Below are positions 2,896-64,000 of a stretch of 64,000 nucleotides of DNA, piece by piece. The stretch covers positions 335,240-399,239 of the forward strand of contig JAEUKT010000002.1 of NCBI GenBank assembly GCA_016794125.1, written 5' to 3'. The position numbers and the translations under genes were made by a program. Numbering within the stretch: the stretch's first letter is position 1; every line of letters starts with the position of its first letter. The notes beneath the pieces were generated by a model that searched no databases, was not told where the DNA came from, and was given only the letters and a program-made list of their open reading frames with translations. The stretch is from Alphaproteobacteria bacterium. GTDB lineage: Bacteria; Pseudomonadota; Alphaproteobacteria; Micavibrionales; UBA2020.

Positions 2896-2920
2896 AACAG
2901 ATATTCGCGCGTATTTACGT

Positions 2921-3409
2921 TTAAGCGCCAAACTTCAGCCCGCCTTGTTTTTTCACCGGCGCGCGTTTTTCGGCTTCTTCGGCCTTTGTGGCAAGCGCGG
3001 CAATCACCTTGATAAAGCCAAATGTGGTCAGCAGGTGGTTTTCCGGCATCTTGTCCGCTTCTTTCAGGTAGTCCTTGAGCAGGGGATGTTGATTCTCGCC
3101 TTTATGCCGGCGAATAATTTCCGCCATCCGGTACACCATGACCGTGCTGTCATTCATGTCTCTCATCGTGAATACTTTGTTCAGCTTTTCAGCGTCTGCG
3201 ATATCGCGCTGAAGCTGCGCCAACTGCTCGCCTCTCGGCATCGTTTGTTCAATCCTGGCAACGAGATTCTTTTCCACTTCGTCGATGACAGCCGCCTGTT
3301 GCTTGTCGGGCGCGAGAACGAGGCGGGCAAAAAAGCGCTCCATTTCATGCCAATCTGAAATCTTGTTGAACTCCCGCATAAGTTTTTTAGCTTTCAATTT
3401 TTCAAACAT
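2921..3409 (-). CDS. Hypothetical helical protein with basic C-terminal tail
   Basis: 162-aa ORF with a GGGAGA SD 9 nt upstream of the ATG. No recognised motif. Ends ...EKRAPVKKQGGLKFGA. Confidence 0.6.
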   Translation of the reverse strand: MFEKLKAKKLMREFNKISDWHEMERFFARLVLAPDKQQAAVIDEVEKNLVARIEQTMPRGEQLAQLQRDIADAEKLNKVFTMRDMNDSTVMVYRMAEIIRRHKGENQHPLLKDYLKEADKMPENHLLTTFGFIKVIAALATKAEEAEKRAPVKKQGGLKFGA

Positions 3410-3748
3410 CTCTTCATCTCCCTCACATTAAAATTCCTGTCGCGCAGGGCTCGACCGCAAATACTGTTCAAGTGACAGTCGAACGCCGCCAGTTGTTCTA
3501 TGCATGATCGGGCTGTGAAGGTTGAGAAGCCTCTCCAAACGATACAACCGCGAACTTGCGTCCTTGGCTGTTTTGGGAATGCATGGAGATGACAGAGGAG
3601 AAACAATTCCGTCGTGGAAAACCACTCTGTCCCATAGTCGCATTCGGCTTAGGAGTAAGATAAGAGATTCTTAATATTATGTCAAATCCTTATCGAAAGA
3701 TTTATACTATCTATTTGCTTTAATACGACTTTATGGGAATCGCTGTTA

Positions 3749-4879
3749 TTAAAACCGTTGCGGTTTCGGTGCTTTTTCGACCGTGGCGGCTTTGAATTCG
3801 GTGACCGTCACGGCGGCATCGCGGCGGGCGGCTTCGGCGAGAAATTTGCTGACCGGGTTATAGGCGGTGCCCGGCGGGTGCATGTAGAAATCTTCCTTCA
3901 TATAGATGCTGTTTGATCGCATCAGGATATCTTCGCGTTTTCGCTGGTACTGGTCTTCGGTGTATTTATCCGCATTCGCGACCGTGGTGTCGATGATGCG
4001 GAGCAAATCCTGTTCATCCTTCGGCAGGTTGCGGCGGAAGGCGTGGGCGATGGCGCGGACGGAGACGCCGTCCATGAATTCCTGCTTGTAAATTTCCGCC
4101 AGCTGTTTCGAGGGCGTGACCGTCGCGGCATCGGGCGTATCGGCCAGATGCTGCCTAAAATCCTTCAGCGTGGGCGACAGCAGGAACTGCATGCGGTAAT
4201 TGCCGAAATAGGTGGTGGAATAATTATCCAGCCCGTTCAGCATGAAATCGGTGAATAGCGCGCGCGCAAAATTTGCATCGTCCTTGAAACTGTCAAACGG
4301 CTGTTTTTGCAAAAATGCCTTGGCGTGCTGCGCGTTGGGGCCGCCGTCGCGGTTGTTGAACAGATCATCCAGATATTCGGGGTGGCCGGATTTGGCAGCC
4401 TTGCAGGCGGCGAGGACTTCGGATGTGTAGGCATCGGCCTCCATCATCATCGACAGCATATGGGCGGTGCGCACATCCTTGATGCGCCGCGCGCCGCCGG
4501 TTTCGATGCTGCCCATGTCTTCCATCTGCAGCACGTGGCGGAATTCGTGATAGGTGGTGCGCGCCATGGCGACGGGGTCGCCGGTGTTGAGGATTTCAAC
4601 ATTGACGGTGGGGCGGCCCTGTTCCTTGGCCACCGCACCGAAGGCGTTTTTTAATTTTCGCTTGGACAGCACATCGACGGGGATATCGTTGCGGCCGATG
4701 GTTTCCTTCAGCGCTTCGCCGCCCGGCAGGTCGTTCAGCCGCTCCAGCATCTCGGCCTTGCGCATATCATTGCTGCCGTATTTTTTCTGCAGGCGTTCTT
4801 CCTGCCATGCGTCGATAGCGCCGACAATGCGGGCCTTGAACTGGTCGGCGAAACCGGGGGATGTCGGCGTTTGTGGCAT
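3749..4879 (-). CDS. Hypothetical protein with HExxH zinc-metallopeptidase-like motif
   Basis: 376-aa ORF. HEFRH at TTYHEFRHVLQMED, followed about 30 aa later by MMMEADAY (a possible third-ligand Glu). No signal peptide. Ends ...EKAPKPQRF. Confidence 0.6.
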   Translation of the reverse strand: MPQTPTSPGFADQFKARIVGAIDAWQEERLQKKYGSNDMRKAEMLERLNDLPGGEALKETIGRNDIPVDVLSKRKLKNAFGAVAKEQGRPTVNVEILNTGDPVAMARTTYHEFRHVLQMEDMGSIETGGARRIKDVRTAHMLSMMMEADAYTSEVLAACKAAKSGHPEYLDDLFNNRDGGPNAQHAKAFLQKQPFDSFKDDANFARALFTDFMLNGLDNYSTTYFGNYRMQFLLSPTLKDFRQHLADTPDAATVTPSKQLAEIYKQEFMDGVSVRAIAHAFRRNLPKDEQDLLRIIDTTVANADKYTEDQYQRKREDILMRSNSIYMKEDFYMHPPGTAYNPVSKFLAEAARRDAAVTVTEFKAATVEKAPKPQRF

Positions 4880-5353: not shown

Positions 5354-5478
5354 GGCAAATCCTTTTCAAATGATAAAACGAATAGCCTTTTTTAGTAGAG
5401 AAAGGGCGATAATCTGTCAATCCCCCCTTGCGCCACGCCTTGAAAAAGCAGTATTTTTATCTGAACGAGGGTAAAAAA

Positions 5479-6273
5479 ATGGCTGAATTCGCGCTTCCGA
5501 AAAATTCCAAGATCAAAGAGGGCAAGAAATACGCCGCGCCTTCGGATGCGAAGAAAAAACGCACCTTTAACGTCTATCGCTGGAACCCCGACGACCGCGA
5601 AAATCCGCGCCTCGATTCATACGAAATCGACATCGCGAAATGCGGGCCGATGGTGTTGGACGCGCTGATCTATATCAAGAACGAGGTCGATGCGACGCTG
5701 ACCTTCCGCCGCTCCTGCCGCGAGGGGGTTTGCGGGTCCTGCGCGATGAATATCGACGGCACCAACACGCTGGCCTGCACCAAACATGTGGACGACGTGA
5801 AGGGCGACGTAAAAATCACCCCGCTGCCGCATATGCCGGTCATGAAAGACCTAGTGCCCGACCTGACGCATGTCTATGCGCAGTACAACACGATCGAGCC
5901 GTGGCTGAAAACCGAAAGCCAGCCGCCATCGCGCGAGCGCCTGCAAAGCGCGAAGGATGCGAACCACCTGAACGGCGAGGACGGCCACGGCCCTGCGGCC
6001 TGCATTTTGTGCTTCTGCTGCTCGACCTCCTGCCCCAGCTACTGGTGGAACGGCGACAGGTTCCTCGGCCCCGCCATTTTGCTGCAGGCCTATCGCTGGA
6101 TTTCGGATACGCGCGATGAAGCGACCGGCGAGCGTCTTGATAACCTCGAAGACCCGTTCCGTCTGTATCGCTGCCACACCATCATGAACTGCACCAACAC
6201 CTGCCCCAAGGGCCTGAACCCCGCGAAAGCGATTGCGGAGATCAAGAAATTGATGGTGGCAAGACGGGTTTAA
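5479..6273 (+). CDS. sdhB: Succinate dehydrogenase iron-sulfur subunit
   Basis: Three Cys clusters: [11 protein letters not shown] (2Fe-2S), [12 protein letters not shown] (4Fe-4S), [12 protein letters not shown] (3Fe-4S). Start taken at the ATG at 5479 ([10 protein letters not shown]...). Confidence 0.95.
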
Positions 6274-6283
6274 CCCGGGTTAT

Positions 6284-6997
6284 TTAACCCTTGGGCCCGG
6301 GCAGCGCTTTCGGCTTTTCCAGTTTTTTGGGAAGAATTTCACCCTCCAGCTGCGCGATGCGCGCGGCCATCTGTTCCATGCGCGCGGCGACTTCGTTGAA
6401 GCCGGCGATCATGGTGGCCTGTTCGGGCGACAGCGCGACCGGCACACCCACGCCAAGATCGGCGGCGGTGACGATGCGCGCGGCCTGAAGATCATCGCCT
6501 GCGGGCGCAAAGCCGATGCGCCCCTGCCGCACAAGCACGCCCTGATACACGGCGCGACCCGCCAGCCTGAACATGCCGTCTTCGCTGTCGATCGTCGCAC
6601 CCGCGTCTTTCAGCGCGGCCAGCAGCCCGCGCGCCTCGGCGGTGGAGCGCGGGAAAAAGGCGAAGATGCCCGCCTGCAGTTCCTGCGGCGTGATGCGCGC
6701 GGCTGCTGCGTCGAAGCCGGACAAATAAAAATTGTCGAAGCCGTCGGCGCTGGCGTTGATCCCTTCGGCCTTGCCGGTCGATACCATGATCGTCTTGTCG
6801 GCATCGAGATAGATGCTGCCCTTGATCGCGTTGTCCAGCTGCTGCGCGTATTCGGGTTTGTAATACCTGTAACCAAGGCGCTGCAGCTGCGTTGCGATGT
6901 ATTCGGCTTCCTCCATCGTGGCCGGCGTGAAGACGACCTTGCCGTCCGTGCCTTGCAGGAAGTCGCGCGTCAGCAATGGCGTCGTCCGCGCCGTCAT
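6284..6997 (-). CDS. Hypothetical protein, C-terminal coiled-coil plus Lys/Pro tail
   Basis: 237-aa ORF with no recognised motif. C-terminus ...MEQMAARIAQLEGEILPKKLEKPKALPGPKG. Confidence 0.55.
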   Translation of the reverse strand: MTARTTPLLTRDFLQGTDGKVVFTPATMEEAEYIATQLQRLGYRYYKPEYAQQLDNAIKGSIYLDADKTIMVSTGKAEGINASADGFDNFYLSGFDAAAARITPQELQAGIFAFFPRSTAEARGLLAALKDAGATIDSEDGMFRLAGRAVYQGVLVRQGRIGFAPAGDDLQAARIVTAADLGVGVPVALSPEQATMIAGFNEVAARMEQMAARIAQLEGEILPKKLEKPKALPGPKG

Positions 6998-7328
6998 GCT
7001 GTCACCGGAGATATGGAGGGAGTGGCTGCCATGATCCTGCCTGTTTTAAATACGGGGGCAGTAGAGCATGACCTAGATTATTATGTCAATACATTAATCT
7101 GGCGCCATTTTACAGATTGACATAGTCTACGAATCAGCTAGGGTATTACGTCCAAGCGGAGTGTCATAATACCAGACGGAGCGGTTTTCCTTGAGTGGAT
7201 CTGTTTCTCGCCCGTCACTTTCTTTTCACTCACGAAACAACCACGAATTTTTTCGGGTTGTTTTGGCTCATCGTGATCCGTTCACCTGAAAAAATCATGT
7301 GCAAAACAGGTTATCAAGGAGACGGACT

Positions 7329-7859
7329 ATGACTGACAACACACACGAACATTCGGCCGCCAGCTGGGTGAATGCCTTCTTTAACGAGATGGAAAACTGC
7401 ACCACCGCAGCGCAGGTCGCGCAGCTGTTCACCGACATGCGGCAGAACCTGAAAGACCCGCTCCATGACGAAGTCATGGCAGGGATCGAAGAAGGCCTGT
7501 CGAAGGACATCGCCACATTGCCGCCAGACGTGAAAAGCTACCTGAGAATGGCAATGGAGATTTTCGAGGAAGCGAAAAACGACAAATCAGGGCGCGGCGC
7601 GATTGCCGCCCAGCTGCTGGCCGCCAACAACGCGCTTTTGCCGATGAGCGAGGCCTTCAACCAGGTCGCGCAGGCGCGCGGCGACAAGCTGGGCAATACC
7701 GCAAAAATCTTCGTCGAAGAGGCCGCCAAGCTGACCGACGAACAGTATAACGACACGCTGGAGCAGGTGCGCCTGATGCTGCGTGTCAGCGACCGCGCTT
7801 CGGCGCCGCCCAAGCCGGCCAAGCCGGGGAACCCCTTCCGCAAGGGGCCGGCCGCCTGA
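7329..7859 (+). CDS. Hypothetical helical protein with Lys/Pro tail
   Basis: AAGGAGA SD 7 nt upstream of the ATG at 7329. 176 aa, ends ...SAPPKPAKPGNPFRKGPAA, with a terminator downstream. Confidence 0.6.
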   Translation: MTDNTHEHSAASWVNAFFNEMENCTTAAQVAQLFTDMRQNLKDPLHDEVMAGIEEGLSKDIATLPPDVKSYLRMAMEIFEEAKNDKSGRGAIAAQLLAANNALLPMSEAFNQVAQARGDKLGNTAKIFVEEAAKLTDEQYNDTLEQVRLMLRVSDRASAPPKPAKPGNPFRKGPAA

Positions 7860-7872
7860 TAAGGCATCGTTG

Positions 7873-7917
7873 AAAAACGCCGCCATTCCGCAAACAGCGG
7901 TATGGCGGCGTTTTTTT
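7873..7917 (+). terminator. Rho-independent terminator
   Basis: ACGCCGCCAT (7877-7886) pairs with ATGGCGGCGT (7902-7911), followed by a T7 run. Confidence 0.7.
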
Positions 7918-7982
7918 ACCCCCTGTCCAGCGCGCCGATTCTCCCCTATTATCGTCCGTACACCGCAACAGGAGATTCCGCC

Positions 7983-8852
7983 ATGACCGCACAGGCGCCC
8001 GCCCGCTCCGGAACTGCCGAAGACAGCCGCTCCGCGCATGTAAAAAATGTCGAGGCGGCGGCAAAAATCGTCACATCGAAACTGGGCGCGCTGAAGCCGA
8101 AAATTGCGATCATTCTTGGCTCCGGCCTTGGCGGACTTGCCGACAAGGTCACCGATGCGGTGAAAATTTCCTACAAGGACCTGCCGGGTTTCCCCGTGCT
8201 GACCGTGGTCGGCCATTCGGGCGAATTGATCGCGGGCAAACTGGGCGGCGTGGATGTGATCGCCTTCAAGGGGCGCAAGCATTTCTATGAAACCGATGAT
8301 CCCTACCCCTTAAAAACCATGATCCGCACGGCAAAGGCCGTAGGCGTTGAGACGCTGTTTGTGTCGAACGCCGCAGGCGCGCTACGCCCCGACATGAAGG
8401 TGTCGGAGCTGATGGCGATTTCCGACCACATCAATTACATGGGCCTCAGCCCCCTGTCCGGCGCGAATGACGACGAATTCGGCCCGCGTTTTGTGCCGAT
8501 GACGGATGCATGGGATACGCATCTGCGCGCACAGTTAATCGTGGCGGCAAAAAAACTGGGCATCCGCCTTCATGAGGGTGTCTATATGGCCTTCCGTGGC
8601 CCCACATTCGAAACGCCCGCCGAAATCCGCATGGCCATTAAAATGGGCGCGGATGCGGTCGGCATGTCGAGCGTGCCGGATTGCATCATCGCGCGCCATT
8701 GCGGGCTGAAAGTCGTCGGCTGTTCGATGCTGACCAATATGGGCGCAGGGCTGTCGGATGAAAAACTCAGCCATGCGCATACGCTGGAAATGGCGGCCAA
8801 GGGCGCTGCGGATTTCGAACGCCTTGTGACGGAGTTCGTGAAACTGGCATGA
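7983..8852 (+). CDS. Purine nucleoside phosphorylase (trimeric PNP/inosine-guanosine phosphorylase family)
   Basis: ILGSGLGGLAD phosphate loop, GHSGEL, FVSNAAG, FETPAE and GMSSVPD motifs. Start at the ATG at 7983. Confidence 0.9.
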   Translation: MTAQAPARSGTAEDSRSAHVKNVEAAAKIVTSKLGALKPKIAIILGSGLGGLADKVTDAVKISYKDLPGFPVLTVVGHSGELIAGKLGGVDVIAFKGRKHFYETDDPYPLKTMIRTAKAVGVETLFVSNAAGALRPDMKVSELMAISDHINYMGLSPLSGANDDEFGPRFVPMTDAWDTHLRAQLIVAAKKLGIRLHEGVYMAFRGPTFETPAEIRMAIKMGADAVGMSSVPDCIIARHCGLKVVGCSMLTNMGAGLSDEKLSHAHTLEMAAKGAADFERLVTEFVKLA

Positions 8853-9607
8853 AGTTCTACGACAACCATAAATCGCCGAATTTCGACGACCGCGCCAAGG
8901 GTGAAAAGGTCGAAATCATCGTCGTCCATTACACCGCGATGGAATCGACCGAAGCCGTCTTGGAAAAATTCGCGGATAGAGCGTCGAAAGTCAGCAGCCA
9001 TTACCTGATCGGCGAAAACGGCGATATCTATCAAATGGTGGACGAGGAAAAACGCGCCTGGCATGCCGGCATTTCCAGCTGGAACGGCAAGGACGACGTG
9101 AATTCCCGTTCCATCGGCATCGAGATTTCGAACCGCAACGGCGAGCCGTATACGAAAGAACAGTTATTCGCGCTGACGATCCTGATCAAGGATATCCAGT
9201 CGCGCCATGACGTGCTGCCGGAAAATATCGTCGGCCATTCCGATGTCGCGCCCAACCGCAAGCAGGACCCGGGCGAACATTTCCCGTGGCAGAAGCTCGC
9301 CCGCCACGATATCGGCCGCTGGCCGAAACCGACGATTGCCGACAAGTTCAACGCGGCGGCGGTCGCCAAGAAACCGCAGGAATTGCGCGCCCTGTTCCGT
9401 CAGGCGGGCTATGGCGTGGACGGGCAGAAAACCAAAGACCTCGTCACCGCTTTCCAGCGCCGCTATGAACAGGAAATCTTTAAATCATCCACCGCCGTGC
9501 CGGGCGATGCGACCGCAACGACCGTGGCAAGATTGCGGGCGGTGGCGCGCATGAATTCATTTGCGAATAAAAAACCGGCTTCGCCTTCTGCCCCTGCGAA
9601 AAAATGA
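8849..9607 (+). CDS. N-acetylmuramoyl-L-alanine amidase (Amidase_2/AmpD-like) with C-terminal peptidoglycan-binding-like region
   Basis: VVHYTAM, SSHYLIGENG, AWHAGISSW, IGIEI and GHSDVAPNRKQDPGEHFPW motifs. C-terminal LVTAFQRRYEQ block. Start overlaps the PNP stop. Confidence 0.85.
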   Translation: MKFYDNHKSPNFDDRAKGEKVEIIVVHYTAMESTEAVLEKFADRASKVSSHYLIGENGDIYQMVDEEKRAWHAGISSWNGKDDVNSRSIGIEISNRNGEPYTKEQLFALTILIKDIQSRHDVLPENIVGHSDVAPNRKQDPGEHFPWQKLARHDIGRWPKPTIADKFNAAAVAKKPQELRALFRQAGYGVDGQKTKDLVTAFQRRYEQEIFKSSTAVPGDATATTVARLRAVARMNSFANKKPASPSAPAKK

Positions 9608-10347
9608 ACCTGCTTATTTCCGACGCCCCTTCCCCCAATTTCGGCCCACGCGCGGGTGGCAAGAAGCCGGAATATTTGATTTTGCATTACACCGATACGC
9701 GCACGACATTCGATGCGCTGCAGATATTGCAAAACCCCGAGCGTCAGGTGAGTTCTCATTACCTTGTCGGCGATAACGGACAGGTGATGCGGCTGGTGCC
9801 GGAGGAGATGCGGGCATGGCATGCGGGGAAATCGTGGTGGAGCGGCGAGACCGATATCAATTCCACATCCATTGGCATTGAAATCCAGAACCCGGGGCAT
9901 GGCTATGGCTATGTGCCCTTCCCGTCGGTGCAGATGCAGGCGGTGGCGGAGCTGTGCCGCGACATTATTTCGCGCCACCGCATCCTGCCTTATCACGTGC
10001 TGGCACATTCCGATATCGCGCCCGCGCGCAAGAAAGACCCGGGCGAGCTGTTCCCGTGGGAATACTTGGCCGCCCAGCATGTGGGGCTGTGGCCGAAGCC
10101 GACCGACCGCGATGAAATCGACGCGGAAGACATCATGGACGACCCCGACGCCATCAAATCGCAGCTGACGCATTTCGGCTATGACCCGAGCCTTGACCTG
10201 ACGACCCTCATTACTGCCTTCCAGCGGCATTTCGAGCCGGCGGTGTTTGCGCAGGAGGAGAAGGTTGGTGTGGTCAGCCTTAACACCGTTAAGTTGATAA
10301 AAGCCGTTGTACGTCAACGGCTTGCGCTGCGCCCGAAAATCGCCTGA
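9604..10347 (+). CDS. N-acetylmuramoyl-L-alanine amidase (Amidase_2/AmpD-like), tandem paralog
   Basis: ILHYTDT, SSHYLVGDNG, AWHAGKSWW, IGIEI and AHSDIAPARKKDPGELFPW motifs, plus LITAFQRHFEP. 4-nt ATGA overlap with the upstream paralog. Confidence 0.85.
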   Translation: MNLLISDAPSPNFGPRAGGKKPEYLILHYTDTRTTFDALQILQNPERQVSSHYLVGDNGQVMRLVPEEMRAWHAGKSWWSGETDINSTSIGIEIQNPGHGYGYVPFPSVQMQAVAELCRDIISRHRILPYHVLAHSDIAPARKKDPGELFPWEYLAAQHVGLWPKPTDRDEIDAEDIMDDPDAIKSQLTHFGYDPSLDLTTLITAFQRHFEPAVFAQEEKVGVVSLNTVKLIKAVVRQRLALRPKIA

Positions 10348-10399: not shown

Positions 10400-10770
10400 G
10401 CCAGAAGGCCGGATAACCGCGGGTATGCAAATATTCGAGGAAAGTCCGGGCTCCAGAAAAACACGGTGCCGGTTAACGGCCGGCGGGGGCGACCCCAGGG
10501 ATCAGTGCCACAGAAAATATACCGCCCAGCAATGGGTAAGGGTGAAAAGGTGCGGTAAGAGCGCACCGCGGAACTGGCAACAGTTTTGGCAGGGAAAACC
10601 CCACCGGGAGCAAGGCCAAATAGGGAAGGCATGATCATCTTCGGATGGTCGGGTTTGTTTTTTAACCTCGCCTTCCGGGTTGGCTGCCAGAGGTGACAAG
10701 AGATTGTCACCCCAGACGAATGGTTATCGCCGCGCAAGCGGTACAGAACCCGGCTTACAGGCCTTCTGGC
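10400..10770 (+). ncRNA. rnpB: RNase P RNA, bacterial type A
   Basis: Universal GAGGAAAGTCCGGGCTCC block near the 5' end and ACAGAACCCGGCTTA near the 3' end. P1 helix GCCAGAAGGCC (10400-10410) pairs with GGCCTTCTGGC (10760-10770). T-run follows. Ends approximate to +/-5 nt. Confidence 0.9.
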
Positions 10771-10795
10771 ATATTTTTTTGAGACCAAATGGAGT

Positions 10796-12088
10796 GTGCA
10801 TATCTTGAACTACGATCCCGTTGAAGGCGTGAATTACATTTTCGACCGCTATGCGTTCATGAACCAGATTTTGCAGGACGGCAAAAGCGAGCTGCGGATT
10901 TCGGAATCCTCGACCCGCGACGACATGAACAAGGCCTTCACGATTGCGCGCGGCATGTACCACCCCGACCGTCAGGCGCGCACGGGTGACGAGATGAAGC
11001 AAAAGGCGGAGCAGAAAACGAAGCTGATCGCCGATTGCGAACGCTTCCTGCTGAACCCCGAATTAAAATCATTCTATGACGATAAGCTGGCGCATTTCCG
11101 CGAGCATAAGCCGCATCTGGTATCTGATAGCGGCATCGCCATCATCAGCCTTGGCGAAACCGTGTTCGATATCGGCGCGCTTTTGTCGGACGATGTCGTC
11201 GATACGTCGGATTTCGAAGCCCGCGTGAAGGCATTGACGCAGTATGACGACAAGCGCGTGCCGCAGCTGAAATCGCTTTACGACATGATGCCCGACAACG
11301 CGCAGGTGAAATCGCTGTACCGTGACGCGGTCACATCGGAATATATTTACCTCGGTTTCCTTGAAGATTCCGCATGGGCAAAAGTCGGCTACATGAACCG
11401 CAAGGAAAAAGAAGAAGGTTTCATGATCCGCGCGTCCGATTATACCAAACGTGTGGATGCGGCGCTGGAAAAGGCAGCGGCGCGCGACATTGATTCCACC
11501 ATCGAAAGCCACGGCGCGGTCGCCCGCATCGGCATGGCGAAAACCCCGCTGCTGCTGGATGCCGCCGAAGGCACGGAAATGCCCGGCATGGAGCTGATGG
11601 CACCCGACCAGCACAAACGCCTGATGGAAAAATTCAAGGATGTCGCGCACAAGAATTTCGAAATCCGCGCCGAATATGTGCGCGAGGTGGCAAAACGCAA
11701 GGAAGCAGCGCTTGAAACGCTGCTGAACCTGTCGGAGATCGAGCCGATTGGCGTGGAGGCCGCAGGCCAGACGAAATTCGATTTCTACATGATCAACCCC
11801 GCGCATGACGACAACCCTGCGCGCGTCGTGTACCGCCTGGAACTTGATCTTGAAACCGGCAATGCCGGCATCGGCGAAATGTATCGGGAGCCCCTGACGC
11901 TCGATCAATTGAAGGCGCAGGAAGGCACCCGCGCCGGTTTCGCCGTGATCCGCAATATCGAGATTTCGGACATCATGCTGGAAACGGCGGCCGCATCGGA
12001 GCGGTTCCTGAACACCCGCGTGAAGGACGTGGAGCAAACACCCGCCCCCGCCGCGGCCAAACCGAAAAACAACGCGCCCCGTCCGTAA
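10796..12088 (+). CDS. J-domain (DnaJ-like, HPD motif) protein with uncharacterised C-terminal region
   Basis: N-terminal ~70 aa fits the J-domain pattern: ...DDMNKAFTIARGMYHPDRQ...KQKAEQKTKLIADCERFLLNPELKSFYDDKL, with HPD at codons 56-58 (nt 10961-10969). No zinc-finger or Gly/Phe region. The start may be the GTG at 10796 or the TTG at 10805, which has better spacing from the GGAG. Ends ...AAAKPKNNAPRP-stop. Confidence 0.75.
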   Translation: MHILNYDPVEGVNYIFDRYAFMNQILQDGKSELRISESSTRDDMNKAFTIARGMYHPDRQARTGDEMKQKAEQKTKLIADCERFLLNPELKSFYDDKLAHFREHKPHLVSDSGIAIISLGETVFDIGALLSDDVVDTSDFEARVKALTQYDDKRVPQLKSLYDMMPDNAQVKSLYRDAVTSEYIYLGFLEDSAWAKVGYMNRKEKEEGFMIRASDYTKRVDAALEKAAARDIDSTIESHGAVARIGMAKTPLLLDAAEGTEMPGMELMAPDQHKRLMEKFKDVAHKNFEIRAEYVREVAKRKEAALETLLNLSEIEPIGVEAAGQTKFDFYMINPAHDDNPARVVYRLELDLETGNAGIGEMYREPLTLDQLKAQEGTRAGFAVIRNIEISDIMLETAAASERFLNTRVKDVEQTPAPAAAKPKNNAPRP

Positions 12089-12099
12089 CGGAGTTTTGT

Positions 12100-12462
12100 A
12101 TGCCGACGTTCAAGCGACTGGACGAACACAGCCTTCTGGTACGTACCGACCTTGCCGAAGCCAAGGAATGGGGAGGCGCGCGACTGAGCCGCATTTTCAA
12201 TTTCAAGGCGCGGCAGCTGACCACCATTTACGAGCGCGGCGGCACGCAGGAGTTTTCGATCCCGAACGGCAACTATTCGTCAAAAACCGGATACACCGCC
12301 GCCGTCACCTCGTCGATGACCGTGCAGAATTTCCGCGACATCGAAGGCACGGAAGAAATCGCCGAAATGCACGCCAAGCTGGTCAGCCTGAACGGCCGGC
12401 CGCCGAAACTGGAGGATGTGCTGCCCGGGCAGATGAACAAAAAAGCGAAGCTCGGCGGCTGA
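12100..12462 (+). CDS. Small protein, unassigned family (copy A)
   Basis: 120 aa, GGAG SD, 11 nt after the J-domain gene. Shares RIFNFKARQ(L/I)T, F(R/S)D(I/L)(E/D)...E(I/V)A(E/D)MH and G.PP.L blocks with copies B-E. Confidence 0.65.
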   Translation: MPTFKRLDEHSLLVRTDLAEAKEWGGARLSRIFNFKARQLTTIYERGGTQEFSIPNGNYSSKTGYTAAVTSSMTVQNFRDIEGTEEIAEMHAKLVSLNGRPPKLEDVLPGQMNKKAKLGG

Positions 12463-12507
12463 ACGGCGTTAAGTCGGGCGTTAAGTTTATTTTCATAGGA
12501 GTGGAAA

Positions 12508-12828
12508 ATGGCAGATACTGAAGTTTATGAAAAAATGAACGACTATACGTTGTCGGCCATGACCGAATTCTCCGCCCAGTCGGGTTCCGACCCCATGCTG
12601 CGTCGGATTTTCAATTTCAAGGCGCGCCAGATTACCAACATCTATTCGCAATGGTACGGCGCCAGCGTTTCCAATTCGATGGTCATCCAGAAATTCAGCG
12701 ACCTCGACAGCCTTGACGAAGTCGCCGACATGCATAAACGCCTGCGGGACAAGGGCGGCAATCCGCCGCCGCTGGAGGTGGATGCGCTGGGCAAATCCAC
12801 CGCGCGTCCGGCGACGCTCCGCCCGTGA
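12508..12828 (+). CDS. Small protein, unassigned family (copy B)
   Basis: 106 aa, AGGAG SD. Contains RRIFNFKARQIT...FSDLDSLDEVADMHKRLRDKGGNPPPLEV...ATLRP-stop. Confidence 0.65.
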   Translation: MADTEVYEKMNDYTLSAMTEFSAQSGSDPMLRRIFNFKARQITNIYSQWYGASVSNSMVIQKFSDLDSLDEVADMHKRLRDKGGNPPPLEVDALGKSTARPATLRP

Positions 12829-61127: not shown

Positions 61128-61814
61128 ATGAAGTTTTCATGGCTTTGCCTGCTGGCGGCGATTGCAATTGCGGCACCGGCAACAACCGTCATGGCGCAGA
61201 ATCCCGGCACGGGGCAGCAGCCGCTGCCCAACCCGCTCGACCCGCCCGCGCCGCCGCCATCGACCGAGGCCAAGCCCGACTGGATGGGTTACCCCAAGGA
61301 AGAAACCGGGGAACAGGGCGACCTGTCGAACCCGCACCGCACGCCCGAAGAAATCGTGGCATGGGTGCAGTCGCTGTCGACCGATATGCTGACATTCACA
61401 TCCAAAGCCGCCTATGACCGCCTGACCGAAGCGGGCGCATCGATCGCGTTCGAGGAAGTGAATACGAAACTGTTCCGCCTGAAGCCCAAATTCACGGCCA
61501 AGGGCTGGGCCGAATACGCCGCCTATGCGCAGCAGTCGCAAATCATCGACAAGGTGCGCAACCACGAATATTCGGTCACCACCATCATGAACGGCAACGC
61601 CGCCATTCTGGACAAGGGCCCTGTCGAGGGCGTTTACCGCTGGCTGGTGCGCGCGCCCCTGATGATCACCTATCTGCTGGTCAACGAAAAGGGCGAGCAG
61701 CAGGCTGTGGAAGACGGCCAGTTTGAAGTGACGATGCAGCTGGCACGCGGCCCCCAGACCGGCCCCGAAGATCCCGGCCTGCTGGTCGAGGGCTGGAACG
61801 TCGTTGCGAAATAA
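61128..61814 (+). CDS. Secreted protein, possibly DotI/IcmL-like domain
   Basis: Signal peptide (AIAIAAPATTVMAQ), a Pro-rich linker, then W...LTF...FTAKGW.EY....S.IIDKV....SVT......IL.KGPVEGVYRWLVRAPLMITY. From memory this resembles the DotI/IcmL (T4BSS) domain pattern. The CDS call is solid; the family call is tentative. Confidence 0.5.
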   Translation: MKFSWLCLLAAIAIAAPATTVMAQNPGTGQQPLPNPLDPPAPPPSTEAKPDWMGYPKEETGEQGDLSNPHRTPEEIVAWVQSLSTDMLTFTSKAAYDRLTEAGASIAFEEVNTKLFRLKPKFTAKGWAEYAAYAQQSQIIDKVRNHEYSVTTIMNGNAAILDKGPVEGVYRWLVRAPLMITYLLVNEKGEQQAVEDGQFEVTMQLARGPQTGPEDPGLLVEGWNVVAK

Positions 61815-63078: not shown

Positions 63079-63143
63079 TATTTACATAATAATTAGATAT
63101 TGCGTATATTTTTAAGCCGGATATGCCGCCCCGACGGTTATCT

Positions 63144-63200
63144 TTGACATATTAAATACGGTTTGCTATTCCTTTTGCATAACAAATACAGAAGGAATAG
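63144..63200 (+). promoter_or_regulatory. Candidate promoter plus 9-bp inverted repeat covering the Shine-Dalgarno of the small-gene array
   Basis: TTGACA (63144-63149), 17 nt, TATTCC (63167-63172). CTATTCCTT (63166-63174) is the exact reverse complement of AAGGAATAG (63192-63200), which contains the AAGGA SD 8 nt upstream of the ATG at 63208. Confidence 0.35.
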
Positions 63201-63207
63201 CCCGCCC

Positions 63208-63513
63208 ATGTCCCTCACCGCCGCCTTCAACGACGATTATCCGACTGAAATGGTGAACAGTTACGTGCTGACCGTCCAATATGATGTGGCGGGTTACAGC
63301 CAGGTGATGGCCTATGATTTCAAGGCGCGGCTGATGACGCTGCGCACCGATGGTTATGCGGATGCGGGCGTGCGCATGATCCCGTTTTCACAGCTGGACC
63401 GCGACAGCCTTGTGGAATTGCGCGACCAGCTGATCGAGCTGGGCGGCAATCCGCCGCCGCTCGCCCCCGAACCCAATACGCTGAACAAGCCCGCACGCGG
63501 CCTGAACCCGTAA
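63208..63513 (+). CDS. Small protein, unassigned family (copy C)
   Basis: 101 aa. Contains MSLTAAFNDDY...YDFKARLMT...PFSQLDRDSLVELRDQLIELGGNPPPL...LNKPARGLNP-stop, with an AAGGAAT SD. Confidence 0.65.
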   Translation: MSLTAAFNDDYPTEMVNSYVLTVQYDVAGYSQVMAYDFKARLMTLRTDGYADAGVRMIPFSQLDRDSLVELRDQLIELGGNPPPLAPEPNTLNKPARGLNP

Positions 63514-63525
63514 AGGAATTCCCAC

Positions 63526-63819
63526 ATGTCGCTCAGCGCAGATTTCAACAACACCCACAACCCGCAAAGAATGGGCGATAACGTGCTGCGCATGGGGTAC
63601 GACTCTGTCAGCTTCTTCTATGACTTCGCGCAACGGCTGCTGGTGACCTCCTACCGCTATAGCGATGCGGGCGGCACGACCGTTACGCCGTTTTCGCAGC
63701 TGGACCGCGAAACGCTGATTGACATGCGCGACAAGCTGGTGGAGCTGGGCGGCAAGCCGAAGGAACTGCCGCCGGAAGGCCCGACGCTCAACAAGCCCAC
63801 GCGCGGCCTGAACCCGTAA
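63526..63819 (+). CDS. Small protein, unassigned family (copy D)
   Basis: 97 aa. Contains MSLSADFNNTH...YDFAQRLLVT...PFSQLDRETLIDMRDKLVELGGKPKEL...LNKPTRGLNP-stop. AAGGAAT SD, 12 nt after copy C. Confidence 0.65.
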   Translation: MSLSADFNNTHNPQRMGDNVLRMGYDSVSFFYDFAQRLLVTSYRYSDAGGTTVTPFSQLDRETLIDMRDKLVELGGKPKELPPEGPTLNKPTRGLNP

Positions 63820-63829
63820 GGAATTTACC

Positions 63830-64000
63830 ATGGACGTCAAAGCCGCATTCAACGAACAATACAAGGCGACGATGGCGAATGCCTATGTGCTGGATACCAC
63901 CTTTTATTCGCCGACTCTGGGTCACATCTACCAGACGTTTGATTTTATGGCGCGCACCCTGATCTCGGGCCGCAGCAGCAGTTCCGCAGGATTCACCGTG
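63830..64000 (+). CDS. Small protein, unassigned family (copy E, truncated by window end)
   Basis: MDVKAAFNEQYKATMANAYVL...FDFMARTLIS matches the N-terminus and first motif of copies C and D. AAGGAAT SD, 10 nt after copy D. The ORF runs off the window. Confidence 0.55.
   Translation, partial: MDVKAAFNEQYKATMANAYVLDTTFYSPTLGHIYQTFDFMARTLISGRSSSSAGFTV

Follow-up and report, generated by a model that had tools for sequence, protein, structure and literature searches.

A conserved tandem array of small orphan proteins with a shared C-terminal helix and tail in Micavibrio-related Alphaproteobacteria

Introduction

Two well-known adaptors, SspB, whose C-terminal peptide binds ClpX, and SSB, with its C-terminal tip, share a simple plan, in which a domain is followed by a disordered linker and then by a tip that docks on a common partner. 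Here, we analyze a tandem array of small paralogous genes that begins in the last 860 bases of a 64,000-nucleotide stretch of alphaproteobacterial DNA (that whole stretch is called the window below), and whose products have a comparable outline: a small folded domain, then a disordered linker rich in proline and glycine, and at the C-terminus a short conserved peptide. There is no relation in sequence or fold to SspB or SSB, however, and each of these is encoded in a single copy, whereas the array has eight paralogs.

The delivery domains of type IV secretion systems (T4SS) offer another comparison. In XVIPCD and BID delivery, recognition and translocation depend on a folded domain as well as on a disordered charged tail, and the XVIPCD fold of the Xanthomonas X-Tfes has two helices and three strands (PMC8740702). 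Like the proteins studied here, these domains are folded C-terminal modules (roughly 80-120 residues) borne by otherwise unrelated proteins, they have a disordered charged tail, and they come without an N-terminal signal peptide. In contrast, our family has a modeled fold of a helix, five strands and a helix, which differs also from the four-helix bundle of BID (Bartonella Beps); it has no sequence match to either domain, its tail is proline-rich and basic rather than glutamine-rich (Q 3.1%), and most of its members are stand-alone and arrayed. Given the five-strand model and the proline-rich basic tail, we do not count the family among XVIPCD proteins.

The comparisons reported below firmly establish, as far as sequence can, that the window ends in the start of a real, expressed-looking, ancestral eight-gene predicted operon of a tiny orphan family. 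Equally firmly, none of the family and fold libraries searched has a match to these proteins, which would be a well-delimited new fold family.

Results

We found that the last 860 bases of the window are occupied by three plus-strand open reading frames (ORFs), copies A, B and C, with gaps of 12 nt (A-B) and 10 nt (B-C) (Table 1). The AAGGAAT that precedes copy A also stands 5' of copies B and C, overlapping the stop codon of the previous gene or directly adjoining it. Copies A and B are 46-50% identical to each other, and a hidden Markov model (HMM) of the family scores both at about 1e-41. In all of this, the sequence bears out an earlier note on this DNA, which had described three consecutive plus-strand paralogs, 10-12 nt apart, with AAGGAAT before each. 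The earlier note had further placed a PFSQLDR..L...RD.L.ELGG.P..L block and an LNKP.RGLNP ending in all three copies; both are indeed present in copies A and B, but copy C within the window ends before the PFSQLDR block and the C-terminal ending, and it is the full-length protein, P0026, that carries both. Likewise, the note spoke of copies A-E, but the window holds only two and a half copies.

The array does run past the window edge, as had been proposed. Exact-sequence matches assign copies A, B and C to an NCBI metagenome-assembled genome. Since later copies in the window's genome bear the tags JNM12_04125 and JNM12_04140 (the array tags span JNM12_04105-04140), the locus tags imply eight consecutive array genes. 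On the nearest contig, L046, which is 99.3% identical across the window's last 3 kb, we counted eight copies (5379-7944) with lengths, in order, of 101, 97, 101, 122, 96, 101, 101 and 100 aa and gaps of -4 to 19 nt. Each stop codon in the array overlaps or abuts the ribosome-binding site of the next gene (CCGTAAGGA), an arrangement which indicates that the array genes would be translationally coupled.

Table 1. Positions of the array genes, of elements in their leader and of related genes elsewhere (window positions, except where a contig is named)
Feature	Position	Strand	Product	Details
Copy A	63208-63513	+	101 aa	MBL8712060.1, JNM12_04105
Copy B	63526-63819	+	97 aa	MBL8712061.1, JNM12_04110
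Copy C	63830-64000	+	101 aa at full length (P0026)	first 57 codons, window end cuts the rest; MBL8712062.1, JNM12_04115
Shine-Dalgarno sequence of copy A	63192-63198	+		AAGGAAT, read from the sequence
Conserved motif	63080-63090	+		ATTTACATAAT; immediately 3' of the qor stop codon; supplies the first hexamer of another promoter-like site, TTTACA-N18-TATATT
Promoter block	63144-63184	+		TTGACA (63144-63149), N14, then TGCTATTCCTTTTGCATAACA ending at 63184
-10-like part of the block	63164-63171	+		TGCTATTC; with the following part, about 25-45 nt 5' of the first ATG
Invariant part of the block	63172-63184	+		CTTTTGCATAACA
J-domain-like gene	10796-12088	+	430 aa	HPD motif; heads an operon with two divergent members
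Divergent member	12100-12462	+	120 aa	immediately 3' of the J-domain-like gene; family HMM 19.7 bits (weak), C-terminal half
Divergent member	12508-12828	+	106 aa	JNM12_03870; hhalign against the family profile: probability 95%, E 2.9e-8
Second syntenic locus	L019/L044 6824-12587; L033 996-6216; L030 500-2649			

The leader upstream of copy A had been noted as AT-rich with its own promoter-like signal, and this signal is conserved in all syntenic relatives: the promoter block is nearly invariant across 9 syntenic loci in a leader alignment, and it is recognizable in the distant L037 and L039 as CTTTACATAG..TGCTA.C..CTTTGCATAAC. The motif that follows the qor stop codon is kept in the leader alignment of the clade-I loci and L012, and in a promoter scan the equivalent region of L002 scored 10/12. 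Because the genes appear to be coupled, the promoter block upstream of them is conserved and the coding evidence (below) is good, the array would form a transcription unit of its own, under a predicted promoter that is conserved clade-wide. No intrinsic terminator was detected 3' of the last copy. An Rfam scan of the leader found no RNA family, and we rejected a riboswitch or leader RNA on this ground; a sigma-54 promoter in the conserved block was rejected by eye, since the -24 GG is missing. As a separate observation, the leader holds three look-alike motifs, ATTTACATAA (63080-63090), TTGACATATT (63144-63153) and TTTGCATAAC (63174-63183). Conservation is strongest in the third, which is close to where transcription is expected to start. 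Besides being promoter elements, these motifs could be repeated binding sites of a regulator.

The array genes behave as coding sequences under constraint. Among orthologous copies, dN/dS was 0.05-0.3 for the whole gene and 0.0-0.57 (mostly <0.35) for each half separately, with values of 0.04-0.11 for the orthologs of copy A, and the GC3 of the array genes (0.76-0.83) is that of the neighboring aconitase and qor genes. Thus, purifying selection acts on both halves of the protein within orthologous groups; diversifying selection on the variable half was not seen in pairwise, region-wise dN/dS. Together with the HMM scores, these values agree with the view that the copies are real genes and not GC-rich noise ORFs.

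We found no known family to which these proteins belong. Copies A, B and C had no match in Pfam, NCBIfam, PHROGs or PADLOC. When 121 members were scanned singly against Pfam at E up to 5, there were 11 different single-member noise matches and no family recurred, and a profile search of PDB sequences gave a best E-value of 1, to unrelated enzymes. The AlphaFold2 model of copy A, built from a 121-sequence alignment (pLDDT 83, pTM 0.72), begins with a helix (residues 3-10), continues with a sheet of five antiparallel strands (within residues 13-59) and closes its folded part with a second helix (65-77); the remaining residues, 78-101, are modeled with low confidence and predicted to be disordered. 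In a natural two-domain fusion, the model repeats this unit twice with defined packing (pTM 0.72). We took as a structural match a Foldseek E of at most 0.001 with a TM of at least 0.5, and by this measure nothing was significant in the PDB or among viral models. The top ranks, all non-significant, were p32/C1QBP, frataxin and the polo-box for the single domain (TM 0.3-0.47) and polo-box pairs for the two-domain model (E at least 9e-3, TM 0.2-0.28). The polo-box, a eukaryotic beta6-alpha peptide-binding unit used in pairs, resembles the family in having an antiparallel sheet and then a C-terminal helix, and it took the top Foldseek rank both for the single domain (KKT2/KKT3, TM 0.46-0.47) and for the two-domain model. 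However, the superposition is non-significant (the pair with an rmsd above 13 Å), the family has five strands to the polo-box's six, and there is no sequence similarity, so that we did not assign the family to the polo-box. A WXG100 or ESAT-6-like identity was also rejected, as the fold is beta-rich, tryptophan makes up 0.21% of residues, and there is neither a WXG motif nor a Pfam match. The earlier note's description of an unrecognized family is thus upheld by every one of these searches (Pfam, NCBIfam, PHROGs, PADLOC, PDB sequences and Foldseek), and neither of the outcomes that would have told against it, namely a confident family match or a lack of homologs with dN/dS near 1, was obtained: homologs are present, and dN/dS is well below 1.

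These homologs are few and come from a narrow range of genomes. A single-sequence search of 5.8 billion proteins returned 13 clusters and a profile search returned 312 proteins, while HMMER run exhaustively against 1.84 billion representatives yielded 172 members, all metagenome-derived, two of them repeat-driven false positives. The apparent giant or repeat-bearing members P0142 (4,282 aa, 20 stretches) and P0272 were discarded as false positives from low-complexity repeats. Members are 90-130 aa long, except for a few natural two-domain fusions, and in their records every name is "hypothetical protein." A pattern-based scan of one genome per GTDB species, which used a narrow alignment with a conserved stretch, found 29 loci in about 25 species, all of them metagenome-assembled genomes (MAGs) labeled Alphaproteobacteria, Micavibrio sp. 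or Bdellovibrionales. Because the NCBI taxonomy still places Micavibrio under Bdellovibrionales, these labels are consistent with a family confined to one Micavibrio-related clade. No link could be drawn to RNA-seq of M. aeruginosavorus, as no family member comes from a named isolate, and the pattern-based scan could miss a divergent copy there. We found no relative in 2.9 million viral contigs, and rejected a phage origin for this reason.

The position of the array is likewise constant. In all loci its neighbors are acnA, qor, trcR, a hydrolase gene and the cytochrome bc1 genes. The gene order is acnA, DotI/IcmL-like gene, (DUF1192), qor, array and then trcR, and the most divergent genomes keep it as well. 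Since the slot is kept even there, the array is an ancestral feature of the core genome and not an island. The DotI/IcmL-like gene of the window (61128-61814), which adjoins acnA and lies two genes upstream of the array clade-wide, encodes a protein of 228 aa that matches PF11393 (type IVB secretion) and has an N-terminus resembling a signal peptide; its neighborhood has no other T4SS gene. Two family-bearing contigs, L012 (DASPMW010000125.1) and L031 (CBDFHU010000156.1), are binned otherwise, the bins being "Patescibacteria group bacterium" and "Arsenicibacter sp." Since the array of L012 directly follows the qor end and the conserved promoter, as in the alphaproteobacterial loci, at least this contig is probably mis-binned, and not a case of horizontal transfer.

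The number of copies varies even between close strains. Strains that are ~96% identical at the array locus have seven copies (L002, 4293-6547) or six (L003, L004 and L006; L003 at 2906-4852), and copy B is absent from the 6-copy strain variant; the complete 3.3-Mb chromosome of a relative has eight, and other species have from 1 to 10. Divergence is also uneven along the array, such that between L046 and L002 protein identity is 98-99% for copies 1, 2 and 7 (dS about 0.1) and falls to 78-81% for copies 3 and 8 (dS 0.5-0.7). These mosaic alleles suggest that alleles may have been replaced by recombination within the array.

The proteins have two parts that differ in both composition and history. 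Their cores are acidic (pI 4.2-6.0), whereas the tails of ~20 residues are basic (pI mostly 8.6-11.2) and proline-rich. The sequences are hydrophilic overall (negative GRAVY), with no apparent signal peptide or hydrophobic segment, and they are low in cysteine (0.11% in the family vs. 0.90% in the window's other proteins) and in tryptophan (0.21% vs. 1.07%). Among paralogs within one genome, identity is 23-44% in the N-terminal sheet half and 60-79% in the C-terminal helix with the tail, and the junction KL(V/I)ELGGxPPxLP is kept across the whole superfamily. In a tree of the cores of 95 members, the paralog lineages are older than the clade splits, and each lineage mixes several distant genomes. 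In contrast, the tip of the tail goes with the genome rather than with the paralog lineage. Every window-type copy has RGLNP at its end (the tip in the window's genome being LNKPxRGLNP), while one genome has K(L/F)NL throughout, others have GN(G/K)(L/F)NL, and more distant genomes have tips like IRKGPQS or PKFRRPEA. Such a pattern may reflect either co-evolution with one partner per genome or gene conversion that homogenizes the 3' ends, and the lower dS among paralogs in the C-terminal half allows the latter account.

We also found relatives of the family outside the array. Two divergent members follow a J-domain-like gene in the window (Table 1), and the product of the first of them shares the motifs FNFKARQ...KLVSLNGRPPKL with the family. 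The J-domain-like protein matches Pfam DnaJ with an E of 4.9e-5 and 23.8 bits, which falls short of the 27.8-bit gathering score, and one JGI record labels it CbpA; it has no match to the family profile, and we rejected the idea that the module lies within this 430-aa protein. The trio is kept on several contigs; it is flanked by the RNase P RNA gene on one side and by the dcw cluster on the other. The former, a bacterial RNase P class A RNA gene (10401-10773, 312 bits), is the sole Rfam match in the window, and just upstream of it are two overlapping, paralogous genes of the Amidase_2 type (N-acetylmuramoyl-L-alanine amidase; 8849-9607 and 9604-10347).

A second syntenic locus in several genomes consists of a DUF6782 gene (with HExxH, a putative metallopeptidase), genes for module-bearing proteins, and then a gene with a Smr domain; the window's genome carries this locus too, outside the window (JNM12_05395). 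Here, four to six proteins have the module at their C-terminus and are interleaved with stand-alone members. These proteins are 285-360 aa long and differ in their N-terminal parts, one of which contains a Pfam-significant Ank_2 domain. A profile built from the divergent and fused members gave fewer matches, and neither domain fusions nor named relatives that were of help.

Discussion

On present evidence, this family is a well-characterized unknown and not a demonstrated system. The reading that we prefer, tentatively and with more doubt than confidence, is that these are bipartite proteins: each would carry a core specific to its paralog and, C-terminal to it, a docking module that all paralogs have in common and that would recognize a single partner, perhaps a machine for export or a chaperone. 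The N-terminal sheet half, which varies between paralogs but is kept within an orthologous lineage, would serve each paralog's own ligand or activity. The C-terminal helix and tail, common to the paralogs of a genome and changing in concert between genomes, would be the docking or targeting module for the common partner, and this portable targeting domain would be reused at the C-terminus of larger ankyrin-repeat proteins. The partner would most likely be an export or translocation machine, by analogy with T4SS delivery domains, in which a charged disordered tail accompanies a folded part; the next candidate would be a chaperone-type partner (J-protein/Hsp70).

Several results weigh against this picture of cores joined to a docking module. 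We found no partner and no secretion system: the window is otherwise housekeeping, and neighborhoods of about 20 kb have a solitary DotI/IcmL-like gene and no T4SS cluster or coupling protein. More than 90% of members stand alone, which would be unusual if the module served purely for delivery, since it would have no cargo. The concerted tails could have arisen by gene conversion at the 3' ends, where the ribosome-binding site of the next gene lies, without any partner. The fused proteins match the family profile weakly (E 2.7e-4, probability 42%), albeit with the same motifs; the core-only tree of 95 members is a neighbor-joining tree without support values; and the depletion of cysteine is weak evidence, having been counted over related sequences.

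A more specific form of the docking idea is that the helix and tail are the recognition signal of an undescribed export or delivery route in Micavibrio-type epibiotic predators, with the eight paralogs as effectors delivered to prey and the ankyrin fusions as larger cargo bearing the same signal. If so, the genome-specific tip of the tail would be co-evolving with its receptor, but we think this specific form unlikely. The array might also serve immunity or self-protection, an explanation to which we give a similarly low chance and in which each paralog would neutralize a different toxin or lytic enzyme of the predator itself or of competitors, as in the poly-immunity loci of polymorphic toxin systems. 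Arrays of SUKH and Imm family genes are, like this one, same-strand series of small acidic paralogs whose number varies between strains, and here the proteins are small, acidic and cytoplasmic, near-identical strains differ in copy number (8, 7, 6), some copies are mosaic divergent alleles between strains, and the N-terminal halves are paralog-specific. However, none of the about 30 loci whose neighborhoods we examined has an adjacent toxin gene or domain, the slot is a conserved housekeeping, core-genome neighborhood clade-wide, there is no match to a Pfam or PADLOC immunity family, and diversifying selection was not observed. Moreover, immunity leaves unexplained the disordered, docking-like tail with its concerted tip and the presence of the module at the C-termini of larger ankyrin-repeat proteins.

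The two divergent members raise the further prospect, to our minds rather improbable, that the family comprises modulators or dedicated clients of a J-domain protein/Hsp70 pair, in the manner of CbpM, a regulator of CbpA whose gene lies downstream of cbpA; the tail, being basic and proline-rich, would then be a chaperone-binding element. DnaK binds short basic-hydrophobic peptides and proline-rich peptides, and as in the CbpA-CbpM pair, proteins of about 100-120 aa are encoded right after the 430-aa HPD-containing protein, in an order kept on several contigs and with the CbpA label in one source. This gene order fits the divergent pair (12100-12828) only, however, as the main array has no J-protein neighbor in any genome; the J-domain match is below the Pfam threshold, CbpM belongs to a helical MerR-like family to which we found no match and whose fold the model does not share, and eight paralogs are many for a regulator. 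There is also a case that the proteins build an abundant scaffold, shell or filament, homo- or hetero-oligomeric, to which several paralogs contribute in equal amounts: the operon is predicted to be translationally coupled, its ribosome-binding sites are uniform and its conserved promoter is strong, each paralog lineage is kept across species, and the two-domain fusion is modeled with defined packing between its domains. We nevertheless see only a slim chance of this, since a copy number of 1-10 that varies between strains misfits a fixed stoichiometry and the family does not resemble any known shell or filament protein. Finally, small tandem multi-copy genes with a conserved C-terminal decapeptide recall precursors of ribosomally synthesized and post-translationally modified peptides (RiPPs), the tip being the core peptide, but this is scarcely credible: no modifying enzyme, protease or transporter lies near any locus, the N-terminal 77 residues are modeled as a confident globular fold and not as a leader peptide, the Cys/Ser/Thr pattern typical of known cores is missing, and neither NHLP nor Nif11 is matched.

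How Micavibrio-type epibiotic predators kill and feed on their prey is largely unknown. A clade-confined, amplified and apparently promoter-driven orphan set, with a portable C-terminal module that is also found on ankyrin-repeat proteins, would provide a testable handle on this question in the form of whatever binds the tail. If the partner proves to be an export machine, the family would define a new targeting signal together with a ready-made list of effectors; if it does not, these proteins would still represent a well-delimited new fold family with an unusual, concerted evolution of its tails.
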